Assembly (NCBI RefSeq): GCF_029213205.1
Contig: NZ_JARGNH010000013.1
Coordinates: forward strand, 13,558 to 77,557
Direction of reading: 5' to 3'
DNA length: 64,000 nt
Origin: Pseudooceanicola sp.
GTDB taxonomy: Bacteria > Pseudomonadota > Alphaproteobacteria > Rhodobacterales > Rhodobacteraceae
In this document: positions 11,108-53,865 of the stretch, in pieces
Layout: the number at the start of each line of letters is the position of its first letter
Numbering within the stretch: the first letter of the stretch is position 1
Program-made: the position numbers and the translations under genes
Notes under the pieces: generated by a model
The model's database searches: none
Seen by the model: the letters and a program-made list of their open reading frames with translations, nothing else
Told to the model about the DNA's origin: nothing

Positions 11108-11121
11108 CGATCTGGTCCCTC

Positions 11122-13260: not shown

Positions 13261-13371
13261 CTCTGCGCCTCTGGCCGGGAAATCACGCCGCTGACTACAC
13301 CAGGTTCAGGGTGGCTTGCAATGCGCGGCCCGAGCGGCGATTCTGGCGCCGACACGAAAGGACGACGCCGA

Positions 13372-35608: not shown

Positions 35609-35614
35609 ATCGAC

Positions 35615-36184: not shown

Positions 36185-36427
36185 ACTGGCGAGGTGGCGG
36201 AAACTGGCCGATTTCCTTCGTATTCTGTTACAATTGTTTCGGTTTATTACGGGATTCGGGCCGCAAAGCCATACAGGCACCGGCGCCCAGCTACCCCGCG
36301 TCATTTCCCCTTTCGTGCATTGCATGACGCTTTTATGATCTCTAGAAAGCGTCCCATCGGTGACCGTAAGCCCCCTATGTTTTTGGCACGGCATTGCTAT
36401 TCAGAGACGCCCGTGTCGGAGGGAAGA

Positions 36428-37663: not shown

Positions 37664-37667
37664 CTCC

Positions 37668-38297
37668 ATGGCACAGATCCAACCTGTAACCCCGGCCGTG
37701 GTCAGGGGAACCATAGCGCTTCTTTTCGCGTTTGTGACGGCTGTTTTCACCCTCGCCGCCCCGGCGGCGCAGGCGGCGCCCAAGCTGAGCCTGCAATCGC
37801 GGCAGGTGACGGCGGCGATGCCGGTGTTCCGCAGCGAGTTCCCGCGGCCCAAGGACGGCGGCCAGGTGTTCTTTATCCAGCGCTCGCCGAATTCCAACAC
37901 GGTGGTCTATGCCGCGCGGGTGACGGGCGGTCAGCTGGACGCCAAATCGCCGGTCTCGGCCTATTGGCGGCGGTACAACACCGATGGCGCGGCCAAGGGG
38001 CTGAGCGGCATGGAACGCCGCCTGGCCTATGGCGTTTCGGCAAGTTCCAACGGCGACGGCACCTATGACGTCAGTTTCAAGGCGCTGCCGACGGTAAAAC
38101 CAATTTTGCGGGTAGAAAAAGGGCGCCCTGCGCTGTTTACCCGCATGGGAGATGAGGAGGCGCGTATGATTTACGCCTACCTCGATGTCGACGACGGCGG
38201 GCTTTTCCCGCGTGTCACCGGTCTAAAGCTGGTGGGGCGGCTCGCGTCGGGCAAATACGTGACTGAAACATATCGGGTTACGGGCGGAGAGCTCTGA
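37668..38297 (+). CDS. Exported DUF4833-like protein
   Basis: Signal peptide ending AQA; FFIQRSPNSNTVVY..., AYWRRY...G...LSGMERRLAYG matches the DUF4833 pattern as I recall it. Confidence 0.7.
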   Translation: MAQIQPVTPAVVRGTIALLFAFVTAVFTLAAPAAQAAPKLSLQSRQVTAAMPVFRSEFPRPKDGGQVFFIQRSPNSNTVVYAARVTGGQLDAKSPVSAYWRRYNTDGAAKGLSGMERRLAYGVSASSNGDGTYDVSFKALPTVKPILRVEKGRPALFTRMGDEEARMIYAYLDVDDGGLFPRVTGLKLVGRLASGKYVTETYRVTGGEL

Positions 38298-38299
38298 GA

Positions 38300-39412
38300 A
38301 TGACAATTGAAAAGAAAAACCCAATCCGGGTGGCTATTGCCGGGGTAGGGAACTGTGCCAGTTCACTCGTGCAGGGGGTGTCCTACTGCAAGCAGATGGG
38401 TGACAAGGCCATCGGGGTCAGCTTCCCCGACCTTGGCGGCTATGCGCCGTCGGACATCGAATTTGTGGCGGCGTTTGATATCGACGCGCGCAAGGTCAAT
38501 CGCCCGCTGGGCGAGGCGATCATGGCCGCGCCGAACTGCACCGCGACCTTTTGCGATGACGTAAGCGAGCATAAGGCCATGGTGCGCCGTGGTCCGGACC
38601 TGGACGGGTTCACCGCGTTCATGCGCAACCAGAACCCGGAGCGGGCCTTTCAGGGGTCGCCGGAACCGGCGCTGACCCAGGCCGAAGTGACCCAGGTGCT
38701 GAAGGATTCGAACGCCGAAGTCCTGATCATCTTCCTGCCGGTCGGCTCCATCGAGGCGGTCGAGTTCTATGTGCAATGTGCGCTGGACGCGGGCGTGTCG
38801 ATCGTCAACGGCATCCCGGTGTTCATCGTTTCCAACCCGGTCTGGGCGAAGAAATTCGAAGATGCCGGCATTCCGATCCTGGGCGACGATTTCAAGGCGC
38901 AGTTCGGGGCCACGATCATGCACCGCACGGTGGCGGCCTTGGCCGACATGCGCGGCGTTCAGATCGACCGGACCTATCAGTTGAACGTCGGCGGCAACAC
39001 CGACTTCCTCAACATGATGGACGGTGACCGGCTGGCAATGAAGCGCGAGTCGAAAACCGAAGCGGTGCAAGAGGCGATGGATGCCCGGTTGGCTGGCGAC
39101 GACATTCGTGTCGGCCCTTCGGATTATGTGCCATGGCTGAACGACCGCAAGGTCGCCTATATCCGCCTTGAGGGTCGCCTGTTCGGCGGTGTCGCAACCA
39201 ATGTCGAAATGCGGCTCGAGGTCGAGGACAGTCCGAATGCGGCGGCCGAGGCGCTGGCGGCGATCCGCTGTGCCAAGATCGCCCGCGAACGCGGGATGGC
39301 CGGTCCGGTCAAGGCGGCTTCGGCCTTTATCTTCAAGCATCCGCCGGAACAGATGGCCGATGAAGAGGCCTATCGGCAGATGGTCGCCTTTGCGGAAGGG
39401 ACCACCGGATAA
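38300..39412 (+). CDS. ino1: Myo-inositol-1-phosphate synthase (actinobacterial/archaeal type)
   Basis: GVGNCASSLVQG, GDDFKAQFGAT, YQLNVGGNTDFLNM, SKTEAVQ, GPSDYVPWLNDRK, LEVEDSPNAA. Confidence 0.95.
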   Translation: MTIEKKNPIRVAIAGVGNCASSLVQGVSYCKQMGDKAIGVSFPDLGGYAPSDIEFVAAFDIDARKVNRPLGEAIMAAPNCTATFCDDVSEHKAMVRRGPDLDGFTAFMRNQNPERAFQGSPEPALTQAEVTQVLKDSNAEVLIIFLPVGSIEAVEFYVQCALDAGVSIVNGIPVFIVSNPVWAKKFEDAGIPILGDDFKAQFGATIMHRTVAALADMRGVQIDRTYQLNVGGNTDFLNMMDGDRLAMKRESKTEAVQEAMDARLAGDDIRVGPSDYVPWLNDRKVAYIRLEGRLFGGVATNVEMRLEVEDSPNAAAEALAAIRCAKIARERGMAGPVKAASAFIFKHPPEQMADEEAYRQMVAFAEGTTG

Positions 39413-40230
39413 TGGCGCGGCCCGGGCAGCACGCCCCGGCCTGGATTTCAGGCGGGTCGAGCGGCATCGGGCTTGAGGTCGCGCGGCAACTCGCGGCCAA
39501 GGGTCGGCCAGTGGTGCTGATCGCGCGCAACGCTGAACGCTTGGCGGTCGCGGCGGGCTCGCTCCGCCGCGACGTGCCCGGCGCCGGGGTTGATTGCATC
39601 GCTTGCGATGTCACTGATCACGCCGCTGTCATGGCGGCTGTGGCCGAGGCGTTTGCGGCGCGCGGCGCCCCCGGCATTGTGGTGGCCAGCGCCGGTCTGG
39701 CCGAGCCGGGCCGGTTCCTCGATCAGGAGATCGGATCGCATCACGCCCAACTTTCGGTCAATTACACCGGCACTCTGAACCTGCTGCATGCGGCGGCCCC
39801 GCTGATGCGCGACGCCGGTGGCGGGCAGATGGCACTGATCTCTTCCGGCGCGGCGTTCTTTGGTATTTATGGGTATGGTGCGTATGCACCGTCGAAATTC
39901 GCGGTGCGGGCCCTGGCCGAGGTTTTGCGTGTCGAACTGGCGCCGCATGATATTTCGGTCACCCTCTGCTATCCGCCCGACACCGACACGCCGCAGCTGG
40001 CCGCCGAATCGCTGACCAAGCCCGAGGCGACCAAGATCATCAGCGAAGGCGGCGGGCTCTGGCAGCCCGGCGACGTCGCCCGGTTGACCATCCGTGGGAT
40101 GGAGCGTGGCCGCTTTGCGGTCACCCCGGGCTGGCAGATGACCGCGCTCTACTGGATCGCGCCGCTGATCTGGCCGATCATGCGCTGGCACCAGGGCCGG
40201 GTGGTTCGCAAAGTCGGTGCCGAAAAATGA
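39412..40230 (+). CDS. Short-chain dehydrogenase, 3-ketodihydrosphingosine reductase (KDSR/Tsc10)-like
   Basis: GGSSGIG, catalytic YAPSK, FAVRALAEVLRVEL, the KDSR-like YPPDTDTP, and a C-terminal amphipathic segment. TAATG overlap with ino1. Confidence 0.8.
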   Translation: MARPGQHAPAWISGGSSGIGLEVARQLAAKGRPVVLIARNAERLAVAAGSLRRDVPGAGVDCIACDVTDHAAVMAAVAEAFAARGAPGIVVASAGLAEPGRFLDQEIGSHHAQLSVNYTGTLNLLHAAAPLMRDAGGGQMALISSGAAFFGIYGYGAYAPSKFAVRALAEVLRVELAPHDISVTLCYPPDTDTPQLAAESLTKPEATKIISEGGGLWQPGDVARLTIRGMERGRFAVTPGWQMTALYWIAPLIWPIMRWHQGRVVRKVGAEK

Positions 40231-41114
40231 TCGCGGCCCAGTCGACCCTTGGCGTTGTCGCTGCGGCGCTGGCGCTGTTGTCGCTTGGCTATGCCATCGT
40301 TGGCGCGATGAGCATTGTGCCCGCCACCAGCAGCGGTGCCCGAAAAATCTGGCCAATTCTGAATATCGAGGCCGCAATTGTCGGGTCGGTCTGCACAGTG
40401 TTCGCCTTTGCCCCGGTCCTGATGCCGCTGGCCTGCCTGGGGCTGATCCTGCGGGTGGTCTGGGAGGCGGCAAGCGTGCGGTTTCGCCCCGGCGGTGCCG
40501 GGCTGGCGATTGTCTGGGCGACAGCGGCGGGGCTTGGCTTTCTGCTGCTGATCCTGCTGGTGCCCTGGGGCTGGGCCGTGGCGCTGCTGGCGCTGGCCTG
40601 GCTGGCGGCGATGGTCATCCGCCTGACCCGGCCCGAGGCAGCTGCGGCCGATCTGTTCAGCTTTCCGGTGTTGCCGATCCTGGCCTTTGGCGTCAGCTGC
40701 ACCGGCGGCAACGAGGCGCTGTTTCTGGCCGCCTGGATCGGGATCGAGACCTTTGACAGCTACGCGCTGCTGGCGGGCAAGGTGTTTGGCCGCCACAAGG
40801 CGTTTCCGGCTCTCAGCCCGAACAAGACGATCGAGGGGCTGGCAGGCGGCGCGATCATGCTGGTGCTCACTGCGGGTGGCGCGGCGTTGCTGCTGCCCTC
40901 GGTCGCTTCTGGTCAGGCCATCGCCTTTGCCCTGCTGATCGGCGTGTTCACGGTGATCGGCGATCTGACCGCCTCGCATCTGAAACGGCGGGCCGGGGTC
41001 AAGGATTACCCGCAGCTGGTGCCGCATCAGGGCGGGCTATTCGACATCTTTGATTCCTGGATCGCGACCGGTGGCGCCCTGGCTGTGGTGCTGGCCGTCG
41101 CCGGTCTGGCATAG
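40227..41114 (+). CDS. Phosphatidate cytidylyltransferase (CdsA/CTP_transf_1)-like membrane protein
   Basis: DSYALLAGKVFGRH, LSPNKTIEG, GDLTASHLKRRAGVKD, HQGGLFDIFDS (variant of GHGG.LDR.DS). ATGA overlap with the SDR. Confidence 0.88.
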   Translation: MIAAQSTLGVVAAALALLSLGYAIVGAMSIVPATSSGARKIWPILNIEAAIVGSVCTVFAFAPVLMPLACLGLILRVVWEAASVRFRPGGAGLAIVWATAAGLGFLLLILLVPWGWAVALLALAWLAAMVIRLTRPEAAAADLFSFPVLPILAFGVSCTGGNEALFLAAWIGIETFDSYALLAGKVFGRHKAFPALSPNKTIEGLAGGAIMLVLTAGGAALLLPSVASGQAIAFALLIGVFTVIGDLTASHLKRRAGVKDYPQLVPHQGGLFDIFDSWIATGGALAVVLAVAGLA

Positions 41115-41124
41115 GAGCGGCCGG

Positions 41125-42255
41125 ATGCGTCCCTACCTGCGCCTTGTCCTGGGTCCGACCCTCACCGTCACGCTGTCGATTCTGGCGCTGGTCGAGATCG
41201 TCTTTCTGGCCGAGGAATTCACCGGCCTGCTGGAAACCATCGTCAGCACCGGCGGATCGGCGTTTGACCTGATCCGGCTGCTGTCCTGGAAGATCCCCGA
41301 AATCCTGGATCTGGCCCTGCCAATCGCGATCTTGGTCGGGGTTCATACCGCAGTCGGCCGGTCGCGCCGCGACGGCGAATTGGTGGTGCTCTCGGCGGCG
41401 GGGGCGCCGTCCTGGGGGCTGGTGTCCGGGTTCCTGCTGGTTGGACTGCTCGGGGCCTGCCTCAGCTTTGCGATCAGCGGCTTCATCGCCCCGGCCTCGA
41501 GCTTTGCCCAGCGTCTGGCGCTGCATGAAATGACCGTTTCGCATATTGCGGAGCAGATTTCGGCACCGGGTGAAAGCGGCACCACGCTGGTCACCAATGG
41601 CACCGATTTCGTCGCCACCGGCACCCCGGACGGGCCGCCATCGCTGATGGTGCGCCGTCCGCCGGGATCGAAACCCTGGCGCTATGCCTTTGCCGGGGAT
41701 TGGGAGGTCTTGGGCCCCGATGTCGAGGGCAACGGCACCTTCCGGTTGGGTCAGGTTTCAGCCTTTGGCGATTTGGAGCGGCTGGATGGCAAAACCGCCG
41801 AGGCGCAGCTGAACCGGATGGCAGCGGGAAGCGTCAAGGTCGGTTTCTCGATGGAGGATGTGCTGCCGGTGCTCGACAATGTGCCGCGCCGTCAGGAGCG
41901 GCCGGTGCTGCCGCTGACATTGGGGATCTTCAGCTTTGCTGCCGTCAACACCGCGATTGACCCGCAGCGTCTGGCGCTGACCATTGGGCGTTCGATGCTG
42001 GTGCCGGCGGCGGTGTTGCTGGCGTTGATGGCCGTCTGTGGCGGCACCGTGCCCGGGGTCCGGGCGGCGGCGTTTCCGATGGCGCTGATCGGGCTGGTGC
42101 TGACCGATCTGGTCGCCCGTGCCTGGCTCGGTGGGTTCAGCACGCCGAGGGCGCTGACTCTGGCCACCCTGTTCGTGGCGGTGGCGGCGGTCGCGGTGCC
42201 GATCTCGGCCTTGCGCCTTGCGGGTGAAGCGCTGATCCGGCCGGGGCGCGGATAA
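41125..42255 (+). CDS. LptF/LptG-family permease (divergent paralog)
   Basis: TM1, LPIAILVG...GRSRRDGELVVLSAAG, periplasmic beta-rich region, three C-terminal TMs. AGGAG RBS before ATG 41125. Confidence 0.82.
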   Translation: MRPYLRLVLGPTLTVTLSILALVEIVFLAEEFTGLLETIVSTGGSAFDLIRLLSWKIPEILDLALPIAILVGVHTAVGRSRRDGELVVLSAAGAPSWGLVSGFLLVGLLGACLSFAISGFIAPASSFAQRLALHEMTVSHIAEQISAPGESGTTLVTNGTDFVATGTPDGPPSLMVRRPPGSKPWRYAFAGDWEVLGPDVEGNGTFRLGQVSAFGDLERLDGKTAEAQLNRMAAGSVKVGFSMEDVLPVLDNVPRRQERPVLPLTLGIFSFAAVNTAIDPQRLALTIGRSMLVPAAVLLALMAVCGGTVPGVRAAAFPMALIGLVLTDLVARAWLGGFSTPRALTLATLFVAVAAVAVPISALRLAGEALIRPGRG

Positions 42256-43382
42256 TGGCGTTGCGCAGCCTCACCGGGCGGGCGATGCGGCTGGCATTGC
42301 GCGAACATTTCACCGCCGCGCTGTCGGTGCTGACCGCGTTGATCTTTGTCGCGCTGATGATCGATTTCGCCGACAGCTTTGACAGCCTCCGCGCCGCCGC
42401 CGAGGGCAAGTCTCTGTCGCTGGTGCTGGGCAAATACACCCTCTATCGGCTGACCGATATCGTGTCGCGGTTGCTGCCGGTGGCCACCTTGCTGGGCGCA
42501 TTCCTGGCCGAAGTCCGGCGCCGGGCGTTGCTGGAAACCGTTATCCTGGCGGCCTCGGGTGTGTCGGTTGCGCCGACCCTGGTGGCGCTGGGCCTGCTTG
42601 GCGGGCTGAGCGGTGCCCTGCAATGGAAGCTGGAGCGTGACTGGCGCCCGGCGGCGGTGTTCGCGCAGGTCGATTTGGGCGCTGGAGGCTATGCCGATCG
42701 CTATGCGCGCGGCTTGACCAGCGATCAGCATTGGTTCGTGCAGGACGATGCCGCGATTGTCGGCCGGGTGCTGGTCGGGTCCCGCCCTGAGCTGCGCGAG
42801 GCCAGCTATTTCATCGGTCTGCAGGGGCGCGGCTTTTCCCAGCTGGTCCGGGCCGAACGGGTGTATCCGCTGGGTGACGGCGATTGGCGTTTCGAAAACG
42901 CCGAGATCTGGGAGACGACAGCCAAAGGCAGCCTCGTCGGCCGCCCGGTCGCGGTGCTGGATCTGCCGTTGTGGATTGTGCCCGACCGGCTGGAATTTCT
43001 GCGCCCGTCACCGTTCTACCTGCCGCAGGATGTGCTGAACGCCCGGGCCACAGCGGCGCCGGAGGATCCCAAGATCGCCGCGACCCAATGGCGGCGCTAT
43101 ACTGCCTGGTTATTGCCGGGGTTGTTTGCCTTTCTCGGCGCCAGCCTGGCGATGACCGGGTTCCGGGGCCGGGTGACACGGATGCCGATCCTGATCGGCA
43201 TGGCCTTTGGCGGCTATCTGGTGACCCTGTCGCTCAAGGTGTTCTTTGCCCTGGGCGAACTCGGGGCGCTGTCGGCCCCGATCGCGGCGCTGGCGCCGCT
43301 GGGCCTGGCGCTGGGTCTCGGCGCCGGGCTGCAATGGTTGCTGAACAGAGAGGCGCGTGGCCGCCGTTTGCCGCTTGGATAA
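42255..43382 (+). CDS. LptF/LptG-family permease (divergent paralog)
   Basis: LLPVATLLGA...ETVILAASGVS, periplasmic region (A....GDGDWRFEN), three C-terminal TMs. TAATG overlap with the previous gene. Confidence 0.82.
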   Translation: MALRSLTGRAMRLALREHFTAALSVLTALIFVALMIDFADSFDSLRAAAEGKSLSLVLGKYTLYRLTDIVSRLLPVATLLGAFLAEVRRRALLETVILAASGVSVAPTLVALGLLGGLSGALQWKLERDWRPAAVFAQVDLGAGGYADRYARGLTSDQHWFVQDDAAIVGRVLVGSRPELREASYFIGLQGRGFSQLVRAERVYPLGDGDWRFENAEIWETTAKGSLVGRPVAVLDLPLWIVPDRLEFLRPSPFYLPQDVLNARATAAPEDPKIAATQWRRYTAWLLPGLFAFLGASLAMTGFRGRVTRMPILIGMAFGGYLVTLSLKVFFALGELGALSAPIAALAPLGLALGLGAGLQWLLNREARGRRLPLG

Positions 43383-43398
43383 TCCCGCCGCAGCCTGG

Positions 43399-44157
43399 TC
43401 AGATCGCCTGGGCGCGTCCGGGTGCCCGCGGCAGCCCGGCGCTGGCGAGGGGCCAGACCCGCATATAGGCATCCGCCAGCATGGTTTCGTCGTCAACCTC
43501 GGCCCAGGCCAGATCGTCGATCAGCGGGCAGGTATAGCTGTGACCGGCGGCATGCGCGACCAGCCCGCTTTCGTAATCGGCCTTGATATCGGCGCCGATC
43601 AGCTTTTGCGCGGTGGCGCGAAAGGCGTCCAGGTCGGTCGCGGCGAGGGCGGAGATCCCGACCAACTCGCCACGATGCGCCTCGTCCCGGTGATCGGCGC
43701 GCTTCGACATGTCGATCAACTGGCTGTCGGCTTTGGTCCAGACATAGACCTCGTCCCCGGCGCTGGTTGGCCCGGACAGGACCAGCCCCGAAGTGCCGCG
43801 CAGCATCGGATCGAGCGCCCGGGGCTCATACATGATGTCAGATTCCAGGATCACCACCGGGCCGCTCAGCCCCGCCAGCCCGCATCCCAGCGACCACAGG
43901 CTGCCCGAGCGGTGGTAATCGGCGTTGTGCACCAGCTCGACCCCCGGCGTCGCCGAAAATTCCTGCCGGTAGGCTTCGGCCAGATGGCCGGTGACGATCC
44001 GCACCTTGGAAATGCCGCGATCGGCAAGGTGCAGCACCGAGGCGCGCACCAGCGGCATCCCGTCCAGCGCGATCATCCCCTTGGGTGTCAGCCGCCCACG
44101 GGCGCCCATCCGCACCCCCAAACCGGCCGCCACGATCACTGCTGTGCACTCGGTCAT
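43399..44157 (-). CDS. NTP transferase, phosphocholine/inositol-1-phosphate cytidylyltransferase (LicC/IPCT)-like
   Basis: AVIVAAGLGVRMG...PKGM, NADY..SGSLWSL, LESDIMY, GELVGIS, WAEVDD. ATG at 44157 after GGAG. Confidence 0.88.
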   Translation of the reverse strand: MTECTAVIVAAGLGVRMGARGRLTPKGMIALDGMPLVRASVLHLADRGISKVRIVTGHLAEAYRQEFSATPGVELVHNADYHRSGSLWSLGCGLAGLSGPVVILESDIMYEPRALDPMLRGTSGLVLSGPTSAGDEVYVWTKADSQLIDMSKRADHRDEAHRGELVGISALAATDLDAFRATAQKLIGADIKADYESGLVAHAAGHSYTCPLIDDLAWAEVDDETMLADAYMRVWPLASAGLPRAPGRAQAI

Positions 44158-44267
44158 AGTCAACTTCTCCGGCGCGCTGAATCTGCAGCGCGCATGTTAC
44201 CAATGTTCCGTAAATTTGTTACAGCACCGGAATGCCTGCGCCAAGCTAAGAACGGAGTAACGATCGA

Positions 44268-44981
44268 GTGACTGAATCTCAAACCCCAAGTGTCGGTGCC
44301 TTGGTGCGCAATTATCTGCACAGTCCGAAACATGATGAGGAACTGCATGGCAATTGGGTGATGGCGCTGCTGCATCGTTGGCCGGGATTTCTCCTGAGCG
44401 CGCTGTTCTTGCGCGCCGGGATCAGTGCCAATGCGGTGACGCTGACCGGTGCGACGTTTGCCCTGATATTGCCGCTCATGGCCTGGCTGCTGCCGGTACC
44501 TCTGGCCGCCTGGACAGTGCTGGTGCTGGGCAGTTTGGTTATCACGCTGGATTGCTGCGATGGTGATATCGCGCGTTGGACCGGCAGCGCATCAAGGCAT
44601 GGCGCCCAACTGGACTTCGTCGTTGATATGGCGCTGTGGGGTCTCTTGTACGGATCTCTCGGGTTGCTCGCTGACCGGGCGGGTGTCGGTGACGGGGGCG
44701 CTGTCGTGACAGGCGGCTGGACCGCGCTGGCGCTGGGGTCGGCCTGGTTGCGGTTGCTGGCACGGGTGATCAACGATGCCGCTGGCGGCGGCCAGACCGT
44801 GGGTCAAGGCCCCTGGACCGTGACTACCGCCCTGACCGCCTTCGTTGCCGGGTTGTCGGGCGCCTTGCCGTTTCTGGCACCGCTGGTGATCTGGCACCCG
44901 GCGCTGATCTGGCTGTTGGCGCTTTATGCCATTGCCGATGTTGTCAACGCGCTGTGGCGGATGATGGTGCGGGCCGGTTGA
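44268..44981 (+). CDS. CDP-alcohol phosphatidyltransferase family protein (copy 1)
   Basis: ISANAVT and the family motif DCCDGDIARWTGSASRHGAQLDFVVD. Confidence 0.9.
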   Translation: MTESQTPSVGALVRNYLHSPKHDEELHGNWVMALLHRWPGFLLSALFLRAGISANAVTLTGATFALILPLMAWLLPVPLAAWTVLVLGSLVITLDCCDGDIARWTGSASRHGAQLDFVVDMALWGLLYGSLGLLADRAGVGDGGAVVTGGWTALALGSAWLRLLARVINDAAGGGQTVGQGPWTVTTALTAFVAGLSGALPFLAPLVIWHPALIWLLALYAIADVVNALWRMMVRAG

Positions 44982-46093
44982 TGCGGATTGTGCATGTCAG
45001 CCCCTATCCGATGGCCCGGCCCGGCGGGGTGCAGAGCAATATCCGGGATCTCTGCGCCTGGTTGGAGCGCCAGGGCCATGAGGTGCGGATTCTGGCCCCG
45101 GATGCGCAAGATGACGCCGCCACCCGCCGCATCGCCCTCGGCCATGCGCGCGAGGTGACGCTGCATGGCACCGAGTTCGAGTTCAGCTATGCCGGGCCAC
45201 TGGCGCTGTCACGCGCGGCGCGCGGGTTGCGCGACTGGGGGGCGGAACTGGTGCATCTGCACACCCCATGGACCCCGATGATGCCCTGGCAGCTGTGGCG
45301 CAAGCTGCGCCTGCCCAGCGTCGCCACCTTTCACGCCACCTTGCCTGATATCGACCCGGCAACCGCCAAGCCGGGGCTGGAGGACCGCTTCATCGCCCGC
45401 GCGGCGCGCTATTACCACCGCCGGTTGGCGGCGTTGATCGTGCCGTCTTCGGCGCCCCAGGCACAATGGGCGCGGCTGGGGGTGACGCCGTTGCCGCAGA
45501 TCCTGCCGCCGACCATCAACCTGGCCGATTGGCGCGCCGCCGACCCTGGCACAGCCCGGCGCGCGGGGCCGTTCCGGGTGATCTATCTGGGCCGGTTCGA
45601 GGCGCGCAAAGGTGTCGATGTGCTGCTCAGCGCCTGGGCGCAACGCCCGGCAGCGTTGCGCGACGCTGAACTGGTCCTGGCCGGGCGCGGTGCCCTGCCG
45701 GGCCCGCTGCCCGAAGGGGCGCGGCTGGTGTCCGACCCGGACCGGGCCGCTGCGATTCGGCTGGTGGCCGAGGCCGATGTTTCGGTGGCCCCGGCGGGCT
45801 GGGGCGAAAGCTTTGGCCTGGTGCTGATCGAGGCGATGGCGGCGGGCACGGTGCCGGTGGCGGCGGCCAATGCGGGCTATGCCACGGTGATGACCGGGGC
45901 CGGACGCGATCTGCTGTTCGAACCGGGCGATGCCGCCGGGCTGGCGGCGCGGCTGGCGGAGTTGGCAACCGGGCCCGCGCGGCTGGCCAGGCTGGCCGAC
46001 TGGGGCCGTGCCCATGCGCTCGACTACGATGTCAGCCGGGTCGGACCGGCCTATCTGCGGGTTTACGAGGCGGCTCTGGAGACGCGTTCATAG
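44981..46093 (+). CDS. GT4 glycosyltransferase, PimA-like
   Basis: SPYPMARPGGVQSNI (cf. the PimA PGGVQSH loop), HLHTP, ATFH, YLGRFEARKG, ESFGLVLIEAMAAG. TGATG overlap with the previous gene. Confidence 0.88.
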   Translation: MRIVHVSPYPMARPGGVQSNIRDLCAWLERQGHEVRILAPDAQDDAATRRIALGHAREVTLHGTEFEFSYAGPLALSRAARGLRDWGAELVHLHTPWTPMMPWQLWRKLRLPSVATFHATLPDIDPATAKPGLEDRFIARAARYYHRRLAALIVPSSAPQAQWARLGVTPLPQILPPTINLADWRAADPGTARRAGPFRVIYLGRFEARKGVDVLLSAWAQRPAALRDAELVLAGRGALPGPLPEGARLVSDPDRAAAIRLVAEADVSVAPAGWGESFGLVLIEAMAAGTVPVAAANAGYATVMTGAGRDLLFEPGDAAGLAARLAELATGPARLARLADWGRAHALDYDVSRVGPAYLRVYEAALETRS

Positions 46094-47046
46094 GGCGAGG
46101 GATTGGGATGCTGGCGCTCAAGCCAGCGGCGCATCATCGCCACCACCCGCGGGTTCGGACGTTCACCGAAATTGTCGTTCAGCGTCGTGGTGATCGGATT
46201 GGCGCGCGCGTTCCATTGCAGCTTGGCCCAGGTCCAGGGCAGCAGGTTGTCGACACCGATATAGCCCTCCATCTGCCGGGCCTCAGCGGCAGTGGCGGCG
46301 CGGGCCCAGCCTTCGGCCACCGCGACCTGCGGATAGAGGAACTCCGGCGGCACATCCTGCGGGCTGCGAAACCGGCTCTGCCGGGTGGTGACAATCTCAG
46401 CCGCGAAACGATCGGTCATCGCGGCGAAATTGACCTTGTCGATCAGCTTCGGTCCATGGATCACATGGAACCGCTCGCGGGCGCCATAGCTGCGGTCAAG
46501 GGCGGCGGCGGCCCGCGCCAAAGCATGGTTCCAGGCGCTGTCCTTCTGTGTCAATTGTGCCCCGGTCCGCACCCGGCGAGTTGAAAAATGTGCCACGCTG
46601 CGGCCATCCGGATCGCGCAGCCCGGCCAGCAGGCCGGGGCGGTTCACCAGCATGTCATCCTCGAAATAAAGAAACCGCTCGCTGAGCCCGGGCAACAGAT
46701 GCAGATGGCTGACAATCGCAAAGGAATTGAAGGTCGGCAGGATCGCCGGATCCATCACCTGGTCGTGGTGATGCACGGTGATCCCCGGTGCTTCGACGTT
46801 CAGCCAGGCTGGCACCTGCGGGCGGCAGGACAGGATATGCACATGGCCCAGTTCCGGCAAATGCCGCAACGAACGCAGCGCATAGCGCAGCGTGTCCAGA
46901 TTGTCGCGGGTGCGGTTGGCGCTGCTGTCGGCGGGCAGATCGGCATAGTGCGACTGGGTCTCACGATACCCCTCAAAGCGGTCGTCGACCCAGGTGTAGA
47001 CCACGTCGATCTTGCCGGTTTCCGTGGGTCTGCCGGTTGCTGTCAT
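46063..47046 (-). CDS. Stealth-family hexose-1-phosphate transferase
   Basis: CR1 IDVVYTWVD; CR2 LRYALRSL...PTFNSFAI..LHLLPGLSERFLYFEDD; CR3 HGPKLIDK...RFRSPQD; CR4 LNDNF. Confidence 0.9.
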   Translation of the reverse strand: MTATGRPTETGKIDVVYTWVDDRFEGYRETQSHYADLPADSSANRTRDNLDTLRYALRSLRHLPELGHVHILSCRPQVPAWLNVEAPGITVHHHDQVMDPAILPTFNSFAIVSHLHLLPGLSERFLYFEDDMLVNRPGLLAGLRDPDGRSVAHFSTRRVRTGAQLTQKDSAWNHALARAAAALDRSYGARERFHVIHGPKLIDKVNFAAMTDRFAAEIVTTRQSRFRSPQDVPPEFLYPQVAVAEGWARAATAAEARQMEGYIGVDNLLPWTWAKLQWNARANPITTTLNDNFGERPNPRVVAMMRRWLERQHPNPSPYERVSRAAS

Positions 47047-47228
47047 ATTGCCCTCTGCCGCTGTCCTGGGGATCGCACCAGACGCCCTGATAGCCGAGCG
47101 TGAAGGCCGCGTCGAGGCGGACCAATTGCCACCCCGTGGCCGCCCCATTGCCGGTTGCTGCATTTCGCCTGCCATGGCACAACCTCCGGGCCTGAAACAG
47201 CAGGTGTAGGGACAGAAAGAACGCCGGA

Positions 47229-48776
47229 ATGAGCCAGGGAGAGCTGATCATCGCCGCCGATTTCGGCACGTCGGGCGTCAAGCTGGGTGTGGTGGGTGAA
47301 GGCATGTCGCTGTTGGCCCGCCGGGTCGAACACTATCCAATCCAGCTCGCCTCGGGCGGGGTGGCCGAACAGCGCCCCGAAGATTGGTGGGCGGCGTTGG
47401 CCCGTGGTCTGTCGGCGCTTGAGGCCGAGCTTCCCGGCACCCTGTCACAGGCCGGTGCGCTGGTGTTCTCGGCGCAGATGTGTGGCGTCACCTGTGTCGA
47501 TGCCGACGGTGTGCCGCTGCGACCCTGCATCATCTGGCAGGACACGCGCGCCGGCGATATTGCCCGCAGGCTGGTCGGTGGTTTCCCGGAGGCGTTGGGA
47601 TACAACCTGAACCGCCTGGCGCGCTGGATCCGGATTGCCAATGGCGCCCCGGCCAAGAACGGCATGGATCCAATCGCCAAGATGCATTTCCTGATGCGCA
47701 ACGAGCCGGAGATCTGGGCGAAGACCCACCGCACCCTGGATGTGAAGGATTGGCTGATCCACCGCGCCACCGGCCGGTTTGTCACCACCGCCGACAGCGC
47801 CAATGTGACCTGGCTGATGGACACCCGCCCGGGCCGTGAAGGCTGGTCCAAGGCTCTGTCAAAGATGACGGGCATGCCGCTGGACAAGTTGCCCGAGATT
47901 GTTGATGGCAGCGATGTGGTCGGGGTTCTGACCCCGCGTGCCGCCGCCGAGCTGGGCCTGCCCGCCGATCTGCCGGTGGTCGCCGGCGGCGGCGATGTCA
48001 CCGCGACGGCGCTGGGATCAGGCGCGGTGGCCGACGGGGCGCTGCATCTCTGCATCTCGACTTCGGCTTGGGTCAGCGGCTTTTTTCCGCGCCGGATTCT
48101 CAGTGTGCCCAGCTCTTTCGCGACGGTGGCCAGCAGTGCGGGCAATCGCCCGCTGCTGATCGCCACCCAGGAAAGCGCCGGATCGGCTCTGGAATGGGTG
48201 GCGCGGCTGATGGGCTATGGCGCGCAGCCGGATCTGGTCGCCGCCTTTGGCGATCCTGGCGACTGGCGCGAGGATGATCCGTTTCTGATCCCGTGGTTTG
48301 CGGGCGAGAGGGTGCCGGTCGACAATGACACGCTGCGCGGGGTGATTCACGGGCTGTCGATTGACCATGACCGCAACGCGGTCGCGCGCGCCGCCATCGA
48401 AGGCGTCGCGCTGAACCTGCGCTGGGCCCATGAGGCGGTGGCCAAGAAGCCGGGAGTCAAGCTTGACGGGCCCTTGCCGCTGGTCGGCGGCGGCGCCACC
48501 AACCCGGTGCTGGCGCAATGCGTTGCCGACGCGCTGAACCGTGAGGTGACCACCGGCGAAAGCCAGTTCGCCGGGGTGCTGGGCACCGCCGCGCTGGCCG
48601 CCCCGGCGATGGGCTGGGATCCGGATGTCTGGCATGCGGCGGCGCGGCTGTCCGACCGGGTGCAGGCGCGGTATCTGCCGTTGCCGGACCGTCACGAGAT
48701 GATCGAACGTCGCTATGCCCGTCTGCGCAAGCTGCGGAAAACCATGGTGAAAACCTTTCCTGGGAGCGCGGCATGA
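47229..48776 (+). CDS. FGGY-family carbohydrate kinase (xylulokinase-like)
   Basis: ADFGTSGVK, EQRPEDWW, IIWQDTRA, GGGDVTA, FAGERVP, AAIEGVA, VGGGATN. Confidence 0.9.
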   Translation: MSQGELIIAADFGTSGVKLGVVGEGMSLLARRVEHYPIQLASGGVAEQRPEDWWAALARGLSALEAELPGTLSQAGALVFSAQMCGVTCVDADGVPLRPCIIWQDTRAGDIARRLVGGFPEALGYNLNRLARWIRIANGAPAKNGMDPIAKMHFLMRNEPEIWAKTHRTLDVKDWLIHRATGRFVTTADSANVTWLMDTRPGREGWSKALSKMTGMPLDKLPEIVDGSDVVGVLTPRAAAELGLPADLPVVAGGGDVTATALGSGAVADGALHLCISTSAWVSGFFPRRILSVPSSFATVASSAGNRPLLIATQESAGSALEWVARLMGYGAQPDLVAAFGDPGDWREDDPFLIPWFAGERVPVDNDTLRGVIHGLSIDHDRNAVARAAIEGVALNLRWAHEAVAKKPGVKLDGPLPLVGGGATNPVLAQCVADALNREVTTGESQFAGVLGTAALAAPAMGWDPDVWHAAARLSDRVQARYLPLPDRHEMIERRYARLRKLRKTMVKTFPGSAA

Positions 48777-49399
48777 TTGATGGGTTGATCAAACATATTC
48801 TTGATCCGTTGTGGGAAAAGGCCTCGACTCCGCTGGTGCGGGCCGGTTTGACGCCGAACCAGGTGACGTTGACCGGGCTGGCGTTGATCATCGCCGGATC
48901 CGGGCTTTACCTCTGGCACCGCCTGGATCTGGTGTTCGGACTGTGGCTGGCGGTGTCCTATGCCTTTGACGCGCTCGACGGTGCGGTGGCGCGACGGCGC
49001 GACATGCGATCAAAGGCGGGCGGCTATCTGGATGCGATGGTCGACCGCTATCAGGAATTGATCGTTCTGGGGGCGATTGCCTGGGTGCATGATCTGTGGC
49101 CGCTGGCGCTGTTGACCTTCGCCGGGTCGGTCATCACCTCTTATGCCAAGGCGCGCACCGCGCTTGAGGCGGATGTTTCGAACGATGGCTGGCCGGAATT
49201 GTTCGAACGGCTTGAGCGGATCATCTACACCTGCGTGCTGCTGGTCGCCGCCGGGCTGGTGCCGGAGGGCTGGGTTGCCTCCGTGATGGTCTGGGGCATG
49301 GCGCTGTTCGCGGCGCTGACCAACCTGACCGCCCTGCAACGTGGGGTCAGGGCGTTTGGGTTGCTGGCGCAGATCGACCGTGAAGGTGGCGCAGAATAA
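48773..49399 (+). CDS. CDP-alcohol phosphatidyltransferase (copy 2), phosphatidylinositol-phosphate synthase-like
   Basis: LTPNQVT, DALDGAVARRRDMRSKAGGYLDAMVDRYQE, SYAKART and FERLER, as seen in actinobacterial/archaeal PIP/AIP synthases. ATGA overlap with the kinase. Confidence 0.88.
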   Translation: MIDGLIKHILDPLWEKASTPLVRAGLTPNQVTLTGLALIIAGSGLYLWHRLDLVFGLWLAVSYAFDALDGAVARRRDMRSKAGGYLDAMVDRYQELIVLGAIAWVHDLWPLALLTFAGSVITSYAKARTALEADVSNDGWPELFERLERIIYTCVLLVAAGLVPEGWVASVMVWGMALFAALTNLTALQRGVRAFGLLAQIDREGGAE

Positions 49400-50171
49400 T
49401 CCGCGCGAAATCCACCGCATGCAAAAGCGCCAGGTTCAGCACCAGGATCAGCACCACCACCTCGGTCAGCACATAGGCCTGATACAGCGACGGCGTGTGG
49501 TATGAGGTGTCTTTCAGGATGAACAAGGCCAGATAGGTCAGGGTCGCGATGATCGCAGCCACACAGGCGACGATCCGCAGTCGCGCCGCCGTCGGTTCGA
49601 TCAGCCCGCGCTGCCGCATGCTCTGATCGTGACGGATCAGGGTCAGCACCGCGAGATTGGTCATCAGCCCGACGATCTGCGCCAAGGCGGCAGAGATGAA
49701 CAACATGTAACTGCCGATCATATGGATGCTGTTGGCATGGCCAATCCGGAACACCGACAGCAGGATCAGCCCGAGGGCGATCGGCGGTTGCAGCACGATA
49801 TAGAAGTTCGACCAGATTTGCAGCCGTCTGCGATCGGCGACATCGGCGGCCGGGGTGGCATGGACGGAGCGGGTATAGAGCATCGCGACGATGATCCCGA
49901 GGACGAACAGCTCGACCGCGACCAGGGCGATCCAGAGCGAAAACGGGTCGCCGATGCTCGGCTCGGAAATCGCGCGGCTGATGGTTGGCGGCTTGCGCAG
50001 CGATTCTTCGGGAAACAGGGCGATCCATTCGATTCGGGCGCGAATGATCCAATAGGCAACGATGGGCGAGGCCGACAGGCTGAGCGCCAGGCCAATCGCC
50101 GCCAAGGGCCAGGCCATATGTGCCGGTTTCGGCGAACTGGCCTCGGCCAGGGTTGAATGATTTGCCTGCAT
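49347..50171 (-). CDS. Six-TM membrane protein resembling the Frag1/DRAM/Sfk1 (PGAP2/Cwh43 N-terminal) family
   Basis: Order of features: TM1, PTISRAISEP..F, TM2, GLILLSVF...IHMIGSYMLF, RLRIV, TEVVV, terminal DF. This follows the DRAM/PGAP2 pattern by eye only. Start at 50171 or 50117. Confidence 0.6.
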   Translation of the reverse strand: MQANHSTLAEASSPKPAHMAWPLAAIGLALSLSASPIVAYWIIRARIEWIALFPEESLRKPPTISRAISEPSIGDPFSLWIALVAVELFVLGIIVAMLYTRSVHATPAADVADRRRLQIWSNFYIVLQPPIALGLILLSVFRIGHANSIHMIGSYMLFISAALAQIVGLMTNLAVLTLIRHDQSMRQRGLIEPTAARLRIVACVAAIIATLTYLALFILKDTSYHTPSLYQAYVLTEVVVLILVLNLALLHAVDFARIILRHLHGRSAPATQTP

Positions 50172-50428
50172 GGTGCTGGCTCCTGTCCGATTGCCCATTC
50201 GCAGATGCGTTTTGCGACAAACCGGTGGCCAACAAAACCCCATCTGGGCGAGATCTCGCCGCCTATTTGTAATATTGGGAAGTGTTTTGGCCGGATGGCG
50301 ACGTTGGCCGCGCTGCCGGCTGCCCACAGGCTTGCAATCCGTTCCCTTGCTTGTCAAACCCCGGCCTGATGACGGGCGCCGCCCGGGGCCTGAACCCGCT
50401 GGCGCCGACCGGAACAGGAGTTTGGGCT

Positions 50429-51556
50429 GTGAGCACGATTTTTTGGGCCTTGGGCGGGCTCGCCCTGATCCTGGGGCTGGCAACGTTTGTGGTGCTCTGG
50501 ATGCACTACCCGTTCCGCAAATGGGTGCGGCGCAAGCTGGACCTGACCTGGAATCAGCGGGCCCGGGTGGCCGAGTTTTCGCCGGCTCGAATCGCGGCGG
50601 AAGAGGCGGACATGTTCATCTCTTCAACGGTGATGCGCGACGCCTGCGACATCATCTGGGACGAGTTCGACGAAGAGGCGCCGGCAAATCTGTGCAATCC
50701 GCATCCCGAAGGCACGGTGATCTGGGTCAATACCAAGCTGATGCCCAGGTTCATCCAGGAATTCCTGCCCCGGATGCAGTCGAAATTCGTCCTTGCCTCG
50801 GCCCGGGAAAACAACCCGGTGCGCTTGTTCGATATCGACAAGGTGCTGGCCAATGACAATATGCTGTGCTGGTTCGTCGAGAATTACGAATTTTCGCCGC
50901 ATTACATCGACACCGGCCGGGTCGTGCCACTGCCGCTGGGGATGAATTACCACAAGCTTGATCCCAACAGCCCGAACCGTGCGGGCGATATGGGGGCGGC
51001 GGCCCTGCCGGGGGCGCAACAGGCGCAGATGAAAACGATCCGCGACGAAATCGCGCCGATCCGCGAACGCCCGCTCAAGGTCTACTGCAATTTCCAGCTG
51101 AACATGGACACTTTCCTGCGCCACCCGCATGCGATCCCGCGCGCCGAGGCAAGGGCAGAAGCGATTGCGGTGCTCAAAGACAGCCCGTTGGCGATCATTG
51201 AACCGCGCCAGACCACCCGCAACGATGTCTGGCGGCGCAAGAAAGAAGCGGTGTTCGAGGCCAGCCCGCGCGGCAATTCGATTGATTGCCACCGGACCTG
51301 GGAGGCCCTGCTGCTGAAATCCATCCCGATCGTGAAAACCTCGCTGATGGATCCGATCTACAAGGGGCTGCCGGTGGCCATCGTGCAGGACTGGAACGAG
51401 GTCACCGAGGAACGGTTGGCCCAGTGGTTGGAGGAATTCGCGCCCTGGTTCGACCAGCCGCTGCCGCCGGAATTGTTCTCGAACCACTGGATCGCGCGGA
51501 TGCACAGCTGGAAACCAGAAGACGCCCGGCCGCAGTTGGCGGGCCACGGCGTCTAG
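50429..51556 (+). CDS. Membrane-anchored exostosin/GT47-like protein
   Basis: N-terminal TM; PLPLGM, VYCNF, SPRGNSIDCHRTWEALLLKSIPIV, LPVAIVQDWNEVT resemble the exostosin-type C-terminal signature. GTG start after AGGAG. Confidence 0.65.
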   Translation: MSTIFWALGGLALILGLATFVVLWMHYPFRKWVRRKLDLTWNQRARVAEFSPARIAAEEADMFISSTVMRDACDIIWDEFDEEAPANLCNPHPEGTVIWVNTKLMPRFIQEFLPRMQSKFVLASARENNPVRLFDIDKVLANDNMLCWFVENYEFSPHYIDTGRVVPLPLGMNYHKLDPNSPNRAGDMGAAALPGAQQAQMKTIRDEIAPIRERPLKVYCNFQLNMDTFLRHPHAIPRAEARAEAIAVLKDSPLAIIEPRQTTRNDVWRRKKEAVFEASPRGNSIDCHRTWEALLLKSIPIVKTSLMDPIYKGLPVAIVQDWNEVTEERLAQWLEEFAPWFDQPLPPELFSNHWIARMHSWKPEDARPQLAGHGV

Positions 51557-51677
51557 GCGCCGCAGCCAGCCTCTGACTGCTTCTATTCGCCGGATGCGGG
51601 GTGTATGTAGTCGCCTCAGACGGGTCCATCAGGGCCATTCCATTCAATCCGGGCGCGGCCCGAACGATACAGGTAAC

Positions 51678-53345
51678 ATGCTGAATTACGCCAAATTCGT
51701 CTGGAACAATATTCCGGGGCCGAAGATTTCGGTGCTGATCATGTCGGTTCTGGTTGGTCTGGCCAATGGCGCGATGCTGTCGGCGATCAACAACGCGATT
51801 TCGGCGCGGGTTGATGGCACCTTTGGCTGGACTTACCCGGCGGTGTTCGTTGCTGCGGTGCTGGCGTTTTTCTTTGGCGGTTATTTCGCGATGTTTCGGG
51901 CCACCGACATGGCCGAACGCTTTGTCGAACTGCTGCGCAAACGGATTGTCGATCAGGCCGGGCTGTCGTCTCTGCGTGAGGTCGAGGAATACGGCCGTGG
52001 CGAGATCTATGTTCACCTGACCCGCGACACCAGCACCGTCGGCATGGCGTCGATCCGCCTGGTGCACGCACTGCAATCAGGGGTCGTGGTGTTCTTTTGT
52101 CTGGCCTATCTGCTGTGGCTGTCGCCGATGGTGTTTCTGGTGACGTTGGTGCTGGTGGCCACAGGCGTCAAGCTGTTCTTTATGCAGGAACGCCATGCTC
52201 AGGTCTATCTGAACGAGGCCCGGGCGCAGGAGGCGGCGCTGTTCAGTGGCATTTCGGACATGCTGGACGGCTTCAAGGAAACCAAGCTGTCGCAATCCGT
52301 GGCGCGGGATCTGAACGCCAGCCTGAACCAGTCGTCGGCCAAGGCACGCGAGAATTTCGTCAAGGCCGAGTTCCTGTTCTACTCGACCACGATCGTGTCG
52401 AAATTCATGCTGTTCTCGCTGCTGGGGCTGATCGCCTTTCTGCCCGAACAATGGATCGGCGCGACCTCGGCGCTGGCGTTTCAAATCCTGGCGCTGCTGC
52501 TCTATCTGGTGCCGCCGCTGGAACAGCTGGTCGATCTGACCGGCCCCTATATGCGCGCCCAGGTGTCGTTGCAGAACCTCCAGAAACTTGAAGGCAAGCT
52601 GGCCGAAGAGGTGGTGGGCCGCGAGGTGGCGCTGGCCGAGGATGGCGCGTTGCAACTGCACCAGGTTGAGCTCGACTACCGCGACGCCGAGATCGGCACC
52701 ACCTTTACCCTGGGGCCGCTGGATCTGCGCATCGAGCCGGGTGAGATTGTGTTCCTGGTCGGCGGCAATGGCTCTGGCAAGACCACGTTGATGAAGGTGC
52801 TGGCCGGGCTCTATGCGCCCGATCGGGGCAGGGTCAGCGTCGGCAATGTCGAATTGTCGCCGGATAATCGCGGCGCCTGGCGTGATCGGGTGGCCTCGGT
52901 GTTCCACGATTTCCACCTGTTCGATCAGGCCTTTGGCCTGGACGCCGAAAGCGCGCAGCCGCTGATTCAGGCTGAACTCGACAAGGTCGGGCTGTCGGAC
53001 AAGGTGACGATCGGCGCCGATGGCGGCTTTTCCACCACCCGGCTGTCGACCGGCCAACGCAAGCGGCTGGCGCTGGTTCTGGCCCGGGCGCAACGCCGCC
53101 CGGTGCTGCTGATGGATGAATTCGGCGCTGAACAAGACCCGGAATTCCGCGCCTTTTTCTATACCGATTACCTTGAGGCGCTGCGTGCCGAAGGCGTCAC
53201 CGTCATCGCCGTCACCCATGACGACCGCTATTTTGGAACCTGCGACCGGCTGATCAAGCTCGACCTCGGCCGGATCATATCGGACGGTCCGCCGGTCGAA
53301 GGGGTGGACGACGGTTTCGCGCTGCGCGAGGCGACACGCGGCTAA
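51678..53345 (+). CDS. Fused permease-ATPase ABC exporter, PvdE/SyrD/YojI (cyclic peptide exporter) family
   Basis: Six TMs, DGFKETKLS, GGNGSGKTT, LSTGQRKRLAL, MDEFGAEQDPEFR, VTHDDRYF. Confidence 0.9.
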   Translation: MLNYAKFVWNNIPGPKISVLIMSVLVGLANGAMLSAINNAISARVDGTFGWTYPAVFVAAVLAFFFGGYFAMFRATDMAERFVELLRKRIVDQAGLSSLREVEEYGRGEIYVHLTRDTSTVGMASIRLVHALQSGVVVFFCLAYLLWLSPMVFLVTLVLVATGVKLFFMQERHAQVYLNEARAQEAALFSGISDMLDGFKETKLSQSVARDLNASLNQSSAKARENFVKAEFLFYSTTIVSKFMLFSLLGLIAFLPEQWIGATSALAFQILALLLYLVPPLEQLVDLTGPYMRAQVSLQNLQKLEGKLAEEVVGREVALAEDGALQLHQVELDYRDAEIGTTFTLGPLDLRIEPGEIVFLVGGNGSGKTTLMKVLAGLYAPDRGRVSVGNVELSPDNRGAWRDRVASVFHDFHLFDQAFGLDAESAQPLIQAELDKVGLSDKVTIGADGGFSTTRLSTGQRKRLALVLARAQRRPVLLMDEFGAEQDPEFRAFFYTDYLEALRAEGVTVIAVTHDDRYFGTCDRLIKLDLGRIISDGPPVEGVDDGFALREATRG

Positions 53346-53864: not shown

Positions 53865-53865
53865 T

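Follow-up and report, generated by a model that had tools for sequence, protein, structure and literature searches.

PGAP2 (FRAG1) is an animal Golgi protein required for the re-acylation of lyso-glycosylphosphatidylinositol (GPI) anchors, the N-terminal domain of yeast Cwh43 is needed for the exchange of diacylglycerol for ceramide in GPI anchors, and the DRAM proteins are lysosomal and linked to autophagy. To our knowledge, no biochemical activity has yet been established for the Frag1 family (PGAP2, the Cwh43 N-terminal domain, TMEM150A/Sfk1, DRAM), whose members come mostly from eukaryotes. In bacteria, the Frag1 fold has already been recognised in DUF998 and in an unannotated family (bioRxiv 10.1101/2023.03.09.531927). 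The gene described here encodes a Frag1/DRAM/Sfk1-family protein of Pseudooceanicola sp. and was found in a 64,000-nucleotide stretch of DNA (contig NZ_JARGNH010000013.1, positions 13,558 to 77,557; hereafter the window), near the end of an accessory gene cluster of about 17 kb (36194-53345 region). The cluster appears to make a glycosylated inositol-phosphate lipid, the identity of which is read wholly from gene content, and the Frag1 protein very probably belongs to this pathway.

In order to establish family membership, which an earlier note on this DNA had called by eye from motif order, profile and alignment searches were performed. The reading frame runs on the minus strand from an ATG at 50171 to a stop at 49347, exactly as the note had placed it, with GGAG located 8 bases upstream of the start codon. 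On the PF10277 Frag1 profile the protein scored 35.3 bits (E 1.1e-8), above the curated cut-off of 30.3 bits, and the match spanned profile positions 24-218 of 220. Nothing besides PF10277 was found in the Pfam and NCBIfam scan, which gave no profile match to known acyltransferase or lipid hydrolase families and, at E<=0.01, none to DUF998 (PF06197). Likewise, neither the single-domain 274-residue protein nor the scanned cluster genes contained a PGAP2IP-type C-terminal domain of the kind present in Cwh43. A word-indexed search of 5.8 billion proteins yielded seven clusters, all already annotated as PF10277, with a Pseudooceanicola metagenome-assembled genome (MAG) as the closest named match (49% identity); the family label is already carried by these proteins in the database. 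Homologues in the same gene context were 29-49% identical to the window protein. A profile search of 1.84 billion representative proteins yielded 166 relatives at E<=1e-3, nearly all of 245-290 residues. PF10277 was matched by 113 of 128 full-length relatives (best E 6.5e-24) and DUF998 by four (best 1.3e-5), and all four of the distant relatives discussed below scored above the Pfam threshold for PF10277 (46-63 bits).

Alignment of the bacterial profile with DRAM1 by hhalign gave a probability of 79.6% (E 1.5e-5) over 186 aligned columns; as a control, the DRAM1 sequence used scored 192 bits over the whole PF10277 profile. The alignment pairs Ser65 with the Ser in P-Y-I-S and Glu237 with the Glu in ICEW. 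His150/Gly153/Phe158 fall on VHDGGALLAF with the same His, Gly(+3), Phe(+8) spacing, and R199, K220 and the terminal DF are also in register. Every motif listed in the note was present in the translation, including residues 61-77 (PPTISRAISEPSIGDPF), GLILLSVF...IHMIGSYMLF (residues 134-158), R199, T236-E237 and D254-F255. As judged by profile score and alignment, the motif parallels to DRAM1 are real and the window gene is a true bacterial member of the family.

Co-inheritance was examined in one genome from each of 400 Rhodobacteraceae genera. A Frag1 homologue was present in 11 of these, and an orthologue of the phosphatidylinositol-phosphate (PIP)-synthase-like gene was present in exactly the same 11 and in no others. 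In 10 of the 11 genomes the two genes were adjacent and convergent, with an ATP-binding cassette (ABC) exporter on the other side of Frag1. A Frag1 homologue and the PIP-synthase-like gene are both missing from the other species sampled in the genus of the window, and the cluster is therefore considered accessory. Loci were further collected by a contig scan with a 7-sequence alignment, and the same arrangement was observed in Pseudooceanicola nanhaiensis DSM 18065, Stappia sediminis (Stappiaceae), Shimia biformata, Thiosulfatihalobacter marinus and several metagenomic contigs. Nearly every cluster with enough sequence contained DUF4833, Ino1, CdsA-like, LptF/G, family 4 glycosyltransferase (GT4), FGGY, PIP-synthase-like, Frag1 and ABC exporter genes. 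The nucleoside triphosphate (NTP) transferase with the first cytidine diphosphate (CDP)-alcohol transferase, Stealth, the reductase and a glycosyltransferase-like protein resembling viral A075L come and go. Orthologues of the serine palmitoyltransferase (SPT)-like oxoamine synthase (58-70% identity) were detected in 8 of 10 Frag1-positive Rhodobacteraceae genomes checked, beside the cluster where the contig reaches; in a ninth the match was only 39% identical and on another contig. Outside these families such proteins are rare, with a homologue in 2 of 400 sampled alphaproteobacterial genomes. In the window, the 3' ends of the Frag1 and PIP-synthase-like genes overlap by 53 nucleotides (49347-49399), and comparable overlaps of 21-71 nucleotides were observed in three relatives (L001, L004 and L007).

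Furthermore, distant homologues were found beside the same kinds of genes. In a genome of another family (G404), Frag1 and the end of ino1 overlap, and the surrounding genes encode an oxoamine synthase, a reductase, a CdsA-like enzyme, GT4, Stealth and FGGY proteins. A 644-residue Ino1-Frag1 open frame in this genome was considered as a fusion and rejected, as it consists of two genes in different frames with overlapping ends. On a Stellaceae-like metagenomic contig (L047), ino1 and Frag1 overlap by 8 nucleotides within a cluster of oxoamine synthase, reductase, CdsA-like, FGGY, GT4 and CDP-alcohol transferase genes, followed by phosphonate genes. There, the ino1-Frag1 pair is followed by a phosphoenolpyruvate mutase/NTP-transferase fusion and a phosphonopyruvate-decarboxylase-like thiamine pyrophosphate enzyme (10819-13589), which suggests a phosphonate-decorated version of the lipid. 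A third distant member occurs with an oxoamine synthase, a reductase, a MacB-type ABC system, a ketosynthase and an acyl carrier protein, and a fourth beside three glycosyltransferases.

A tie to the exporter came from the tail of the profile search, where a 795-residue match was composed of a Frag1-like N-terminal domain followed by an ABC exporter. A search with the N-terminal part only, limited to proteins of comparable length, yielded nine protein clusters of such Frag1-ABC fusions (773-807 residues, down to 50% mutual identity), with members from NCBI MAGs, JGI and Logan. The three fusion loci examined, derived from two proteins, were all inside the same kind of cluster, with genes for Ino1, a CdsA-like enzyme, an NTP transferase, two CDP-alcohol transferases, GT4, Stealth and FGGY. 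The ABC part of one fusion (P0158) was 30% identical to the window exporter over its full length (E 2e-65), and the Frag1 part was 29% identical to the window protein with the motifs in place. These findings suggest that the Frag1 protein probably works with the exporter. They also bear on the proposal of the earlier note that the gene belongs to an inositol-lipid cluster: the neighbours it had named (Ino1, two CDP-alcohol phosphatidyltransferases, GT4 and the upstream SPT-like oxoamine synthase) were all recovered, an oxoamine synthase orthologue accompanies Frag1 in most carriers and ino1 is among the near-constant genes, and full co-occurrence across the 400 genera, synteny, the ino1 overlap and the fusion in one lineage all support the link.

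Conservation was assessed in 137 sequences, comprising 128 full-length relatives and nine fusion proteins. Ser65 and His150 were conserved in 100% of these, fusions included, Ser154 and Glu237 in 99%, Phe158 in 94% and Phe77 in 92%, at a mean column identity of 23%. An AlphaFold2 model built from seven homologues showed six long helices and, within the first loop, some short helical turns (predicted local distance difference test, pLDDT, 86.8; predicted template modelling score, pTM, 0.82). Foldseek comparison of the model with the PDB gave no significant match (best E 0.07), the weak hits being to unrelated helical membrane proteins such as G-protein-coupled receptors. Across the alignment, loops 1, 3 and 5 were net acidic and the N-terminus, loops 2 and 4 (with the start of transmembrane helix (TM) 5) and the C-terminus were net basic, so that by the positive-inside rule both termini would be cytoplasmic. 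A cytoplasmic C-terminus agrees with the fusion architecture, since the membrane domain of an ABC exporter starts in the cytoplasm. With this topology, Ser65 would lie in periplasmic loop 1, His150 and Ser154 at the periplasmic start of TM4, and Glu237 about ten residues into TM6 from the periplasm, and the four invariant polar residues would form a predicted pocket in the periplasm-facing half of the membrane.

The position of these residues also bears on whether the protein is a membrane scaffold or subunit for synthesis enzymes on the cytoplasmic face (the adjacent CDP-alcohol transferase or Ino1), in the manner of TMEM150A for phosphatidylinositol (PI) 4-kinase. Such a role would fit the convergent and often overlapping arrangement with the PIP-synthase-like gene, the overlap with the end of ino1 in two distant loci (L046, L047), and the binding of PI 4-kinase by TMEM150A and Sfk1 through a cytoplasmic C-tail (PMC5935070). 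It is nevertheless quite improbable, as the conserved residues are in the periplasmic half, the cytoplasmic loops and tails of the bacterial proteins are short and variable, and the PI 4-kinase contact of TMEM150A is outside the conserved six-helix core (PMC5935070).

The gene content is consistent with the following pathway. Ino1 would supply inositol phosphate, the extra CdsA-like enzyme would yield a CDP-activated lipid, and the PIP-synthase-like transferase would join the two. GT4, the A075L-like protein and Stealth may decorate the head group, and the oxoamine synthase and reductase may contribute a sphingoid-type component. The product would be flipped by the dedicated ABC exporter and extracted for the outer membrane by the extra LptF/G pair. 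At or just after flipping, the inositol lipid would be received by the Frag1 protein, which would then either pass it on or chemically remodel the lipid anchor. Receiving the lipid at this point is the best-supported role because the predicted conserved pocket faces the periplasmic leaflet and because of the tie to the exporter. An export-coupled step is likewise placed first on account of the exporter fusion and the conserved residues facing the periplasm. We therefore lean slightly toward a protein that works with the exporter, takes up the inositol lipid reaching the periplasmic leaflet, and hands it on or remodels its anchor. Catalysis by the protein, for which the invariant Ser, His and Glu speak, is given somewhat less than an even chance.

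Two related proteins offer precedents for lipid handling by other than enzymatic means: yeast Sfk1 restrains the movement of phospholipids across the bilayer (PMC5935070), and DrmA, a DUF998 protein in the same Pfam clan, controls how much there is of a glycolipid that MprF both synthesises and flips (PMC13370385). The bacterial Frag1 protein could be a non-catalytic regulator of lipid asymmetry like Sfk1; it would then limit back-flipping of the inositol lipid or of bulk phospholipids and would not bind the exporter. A small membrane protein without extra domains would suit this function, and Sfk1 also helps retain ergosterol (PMC8694040). Neither full co-occurrence with one accessory cluster nor fusion to the exporter of that cluster is expected of a general regulator, however, making this explanation improbable.

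A third possibility is that the protein is a lipid-remodelling enzyme independent of the exporter, i.e. an intramembrane Ser-His-Glu transacylase that re-acylates a lyso inositol lipid, the part proposed for PGAP2, or swaps diacylglycerol for a ceramide-type anchor in the manner of Cwh43. Near-complete conservation of Ser65, His150, Ser154 and Glu237 against the low column identity is consistent with an active site, and the Ser, His and Glu are common to DRAM1. In addition, the cluster contains CDP-lipid and sphingoid-base genes and no recognisable ceramide or inositol phosphorylceramide synthase, and the L046 and L047 homologues are beside ino1, oxoamine synthase and reductase genes with no ABC exporter nearby. 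On the other hand, no known acyltransferase or hydrolase family was matched, none of the family's proteins is as yet an established enzyme, and DRAM1, for which we know of no enzymatic role, retains these residues too. PGAP2 is required for GPI re-acylation, but whether it is itself an acyltransferase was left unclear in a 2020 review (PMC7125958). An exporter-independent enzyme is on balance unlikely. The candidacy for the missing acyl-transfer step put forward in the earlier note drew no support from the present tests, nor was it contradicted by them; the family call and the link to an inositol-lipid cluster in that note were confirmed. A broader version is rather unlikely as well: the Frag1/PGAP2 fold would go back to an ancient enzyme that remodels lipids within the membrane, its Ser-His-Glu site lying in the outer (periplasmic or lumenal) leaflet, and the cluster would be a prokaryotic counterpart of GPI/glycosyl inositol phosphorylceramide assembly, with post-flip anchor exchange (for instance of diacylglycerol for a ceramide-type anchor) or re-acylation before LptFG-type transfer to the outer membrane.

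Several observations weigh against the export-coupled role preferred here. In one genome (G288), the Frag1 homologue and the cluster are on separate contigs and the genes around the homologue are unrelated, and on two short metagenomic contigs (L008, L013) the homologue is outside any such cluster. Coupling to this exporter is not universal, since no ABC exporter is near the Frag1 gene in L046 or L047. Compared with its closest relative, the Frag1 protein shares 48% identity and its neighbours 56-85%, i.e. it diverges faster. Furthermore, sequence, profile and fold searches of the PDB revealed no solved structure of any family member. The out-of-cluster copies and the faster divergence would be expected if Frag1 were a passenger gene with no part in the pathway. 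This is very improbable in view of the full co-occurrence across 400 genera, synteny across families, the ino1 overlap in distant relatives and the exporter fusion elsewhere.

The only Frag1 homologue of G288 is located between alpha/beta hydrolase and L,D-transpeptidase genes, with a flavin adenine dinucleotide monooxygenase gene further along. The cluster of this genome ends at the PIP-synthase-like gene with no adjacent Frag1 or ABC exporter; cluster and homologue between them account for loci L045 (contig C11) and L028 (contig C4). In a tree of 23 homologues including the out-of-cluster copies, 11 of 20 inner branches were unresolved.

Features of the cluster are listed in Table 1. The PIP-synthase-like enzyme was closest to archaetidylinositol-phosphate and PIP synthases (NF040950, 118 bits; NF045883, 81 bits), both below the equivalog cut-offs. 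The NTP_transf_3 enzyme showed a weak likeness to inositol-1-phosphate cytidylyltransferase (NF041135, E 6e-10, below cut-off). The LptF/G and CdsA-like proteins of the cluster are considered extra paralogues because better-scoring housekeeping copies are encoded elsewhere in the genome (contigs C11 and C12): lptF and lptG scored 195 and 190 bits versus 83 and 74 for the cluster copies, and cdsA, on another contig, 170 versus 121. The scanned cluster genes included no lptB-like ATPase. The Stealth gene had no match in cluster loci L014, L035 and L038. The FGGY kinase, which every cluster examined contained, had xylulokinase as its best match, below cut-off. A function as ceramide kinase like Caulobacter CpgB (CDP-ceramide route) finds no support in that precedent, as the CpgB domain is of the LCB5/diacylglycerol-kinase type and not FGGY (PMC10331486).

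Table 1. Positions of the Frag1 gene, its conserved motifs and the other cluster genes within the window. Core and variable refer to occurrence across the clusters compared.
Feature	Position	Strand	Evidence	Occurrence
Frag1/DRAM/Sfk1-family (PF10277) six-TM inner-membrane protein, 274 residues	49347..50171	-	translation, Pfam, AlphaFold2, homologues	
PPTISRA motif, residues 61-67, predicted first periplasmic loop, Ser65 invariant	49971..49991	-	alignment	
HMIGSYMLF motif, residues 150-158, predicted periplasmic start of TM4 (His150, Ser154, Phe158)	49698..49724	-	alignment	
Glu237 codon, in TM6	49461..49463	-	alignment	
SPT-like alpha-oxoamine synthase (aminotransferase class I/II)	36194..37663	+	PF00155, 144 bits	
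DUF4833 protein	37668..38297	+	PF16117, 83 bits	core
Myo-inositol-1-phosphate synthase (Ino1)	38300..39412	+	PF01658, 110 bits	core
Short-chain dehydrogenase/reductase	39412..40230	+	adh_short	variable
Extra CdsA-like cytidylyltransferase	40227..41114	+	PF01148	core
Extra divergent LptF/LptG pair	41050..43382 (41050-42255, 42255-43382)	+	PF03739	core
NTP_transf_3 nucleotidyltransferase	43399..44163	-	PF12804	variable
CDP-alcohol phosphatidyltransferase lying nearer to the NTP_transf_3 gene	44268..44981	+	PF01066, 27.8 bits vs cut-off 22	variable
GT4 glycosyltransferase	44954..46093	+	Glyco_transf_4, Glycos_transf_1, synteny	core
Stealth-family hexose-1-phosphate transferase-like protein	46063..47175	-	Stealth CR2, CR3, CR4	variable
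FGGY-family kinase	47229..48776	+	FGGY_N, FGGY_C	core
PIP-synthase-like CDP-alcohol phosphatidyltransferase	48773..49399	+	PF01066	core
Membrane-anchored glycosyltransferase-like protein	50369..51556, reading frame open from 50282	+	AlphaFold2/Foldseek	variable
ABC exporter (transmembrane and nucleotide-binding domains), cyclic-peptide-transporter subfamily	51594..53345	+	TIGR01194, 321.6 bits vs cut-off 286.2	

The protein encoded at 50282-51556, divergent from the Frag1 gene, has an N-terminal membrane anchor and a likely start near 50369, and no Pfam or NCBIfam match was found for it. Its model (pLDDT 67.7) resembled the chlorovirus PBCV-1 xylosyltransferase A075L, which appears as AO75L in PDB entries (Foldseek E 2e-8, probability 1.0, about 20% identity), suggesting that it is probably another glycosyltransferase. 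The A075L-like protein is present in the window, Pseudooceanicola and Stappia clusters, and a 31%-identical one was found near a fusion-type cluster. The ABC exporter is the likely flippase for the cluster lipid, and it marks the end of the cluster because different genes border the cluster in the Pseudooceanicola MAG. Beyond it, a nitrous-oxide reductase operon (nosR-like, nosZ, nosD, nosF, nosY) occupies 53740-61035. Directly upstream of the cluster (31963-36184), a PqiA-like gene, a 790-residue MlaD-domain protein and an ABC_trans_aux lipoprotein resemble a PqiABC-type intermembrane lipid transport system.

In the searched literature, no description was found of a PF10277 subfamily bound strictly to an inositol-lipid cluster of bacteria, of a fusion of Frag1 to the ABC exporter of such a cluster, or of an invariant Ser/His/Ser/Glu set that is predicted to face the periplasm and is also present in a eukaryotic member. 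For a family whose activity in eukaryotes has yet to be settled, the cluster provides a bacterial model that lends itself to experiment, with cultured carriers available (P. nanhaiensis DSM 18065, S. biformata JCM 18818, S. sediminis and T. marinus). Given the compact co-inherited cluster, the exporter fusion and these carriers, genetics and lipidomics in bacteria could test what the family does, and the four invariant residues are ready targets for mutation. The cluster also suggests that marine Alphaproteobacteria make a glycosylated inositol (possibly sphingo-) lipid that is as yet undescribed and leaves by a dedicated export route.

Among eukaryotic members, PGAP2 shares with the bacterial protein the PF10277 profile, a similar size, six helices and a place in an inositol-phospholipid glycolipid pathway, and the conserved side would be topologically equivalent, the Golgi lumen corresponding to the periplasm. 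It differs in that the bacterial gene shares an operon-like cluster with genes for Ino1 and a CDP-alcohol transferase, and no protein-anchoring machinery accompanies it. The closest eukaryotic relationship of the bacterial protein, to PGAP2 versus DRAM or TMEM150, is compared here at family level and not as orthology. Cwh43 similarly has a Frag1-type six-helix domain and acts in a pathway that pairs an inositol phospholipid with sphingoid-base synthesis, but it carries a large C-terminal PGAP2IP-type domain, whereas the bacterial fusion partner in one lineage is an ABC exporter. DRAM1/DRAM2 share the Ser of P-x-I-S, H-x2-G-x4-F, the TM6 Glu and the terminal DF in register, and we know of no link of DRAM proteins to a lipid-synthesis gene cluster. 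Sfk1/TMEM150A belong to the same family and fold class, and phosphoinositide metabolism and the distribution of lipids across the bilayer have been connected with both (PMC5935070, PMC8694040); their long cytoplasmic C-tail binds PI 4-kinase, in contrast to a bacterial C-tail of about 15 residues that is not conserved.

Two bacterial systems offer further comparison. DrmA of Enterococcus faecalis (DUF998, PF06197) has six helices and belongs to the same Pfam clan; cells that lose it contain less lysyl-diglucosyl-diacylglycerol (Lys-Glc2-DAG), and a role in passing substrate to MprF, which is both synthase and flippase, has been proposed for it (PMC13370385), an arrangement that parallels the putative partnership of Frag1 with a flippase. 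DrmA is nevertheless of another Pfam family and is not encoded in an inositol cluster. The BT_1522-BT_1526 cluster of Bacteroides, a sphingolipid-making organism, likewise combines Ino1 with a PIP-synthase-type enzyme, and the NTP transferase plus second CDP-alcohol transferase of the window cluster match the alternative NTP-transferase/CDP-alcohol-transferase cluster (bioRxiv 10.1101/2021.04.26.441525). As in the window cluster, a small membrane protein is present in the Bacteroides cluster, where it is the GtrA-like BT_1524, of unknown role and placed mid-cluster. No homologue of phosphoinositol dihydroceramide (PI-DHC) synthase or of a PgpA-like phosphatase was found among the window cluster genes scanned; the window cluster has instead Frag1, FGGY, GT4, Stealth, LptF/G and the ABC exporter.

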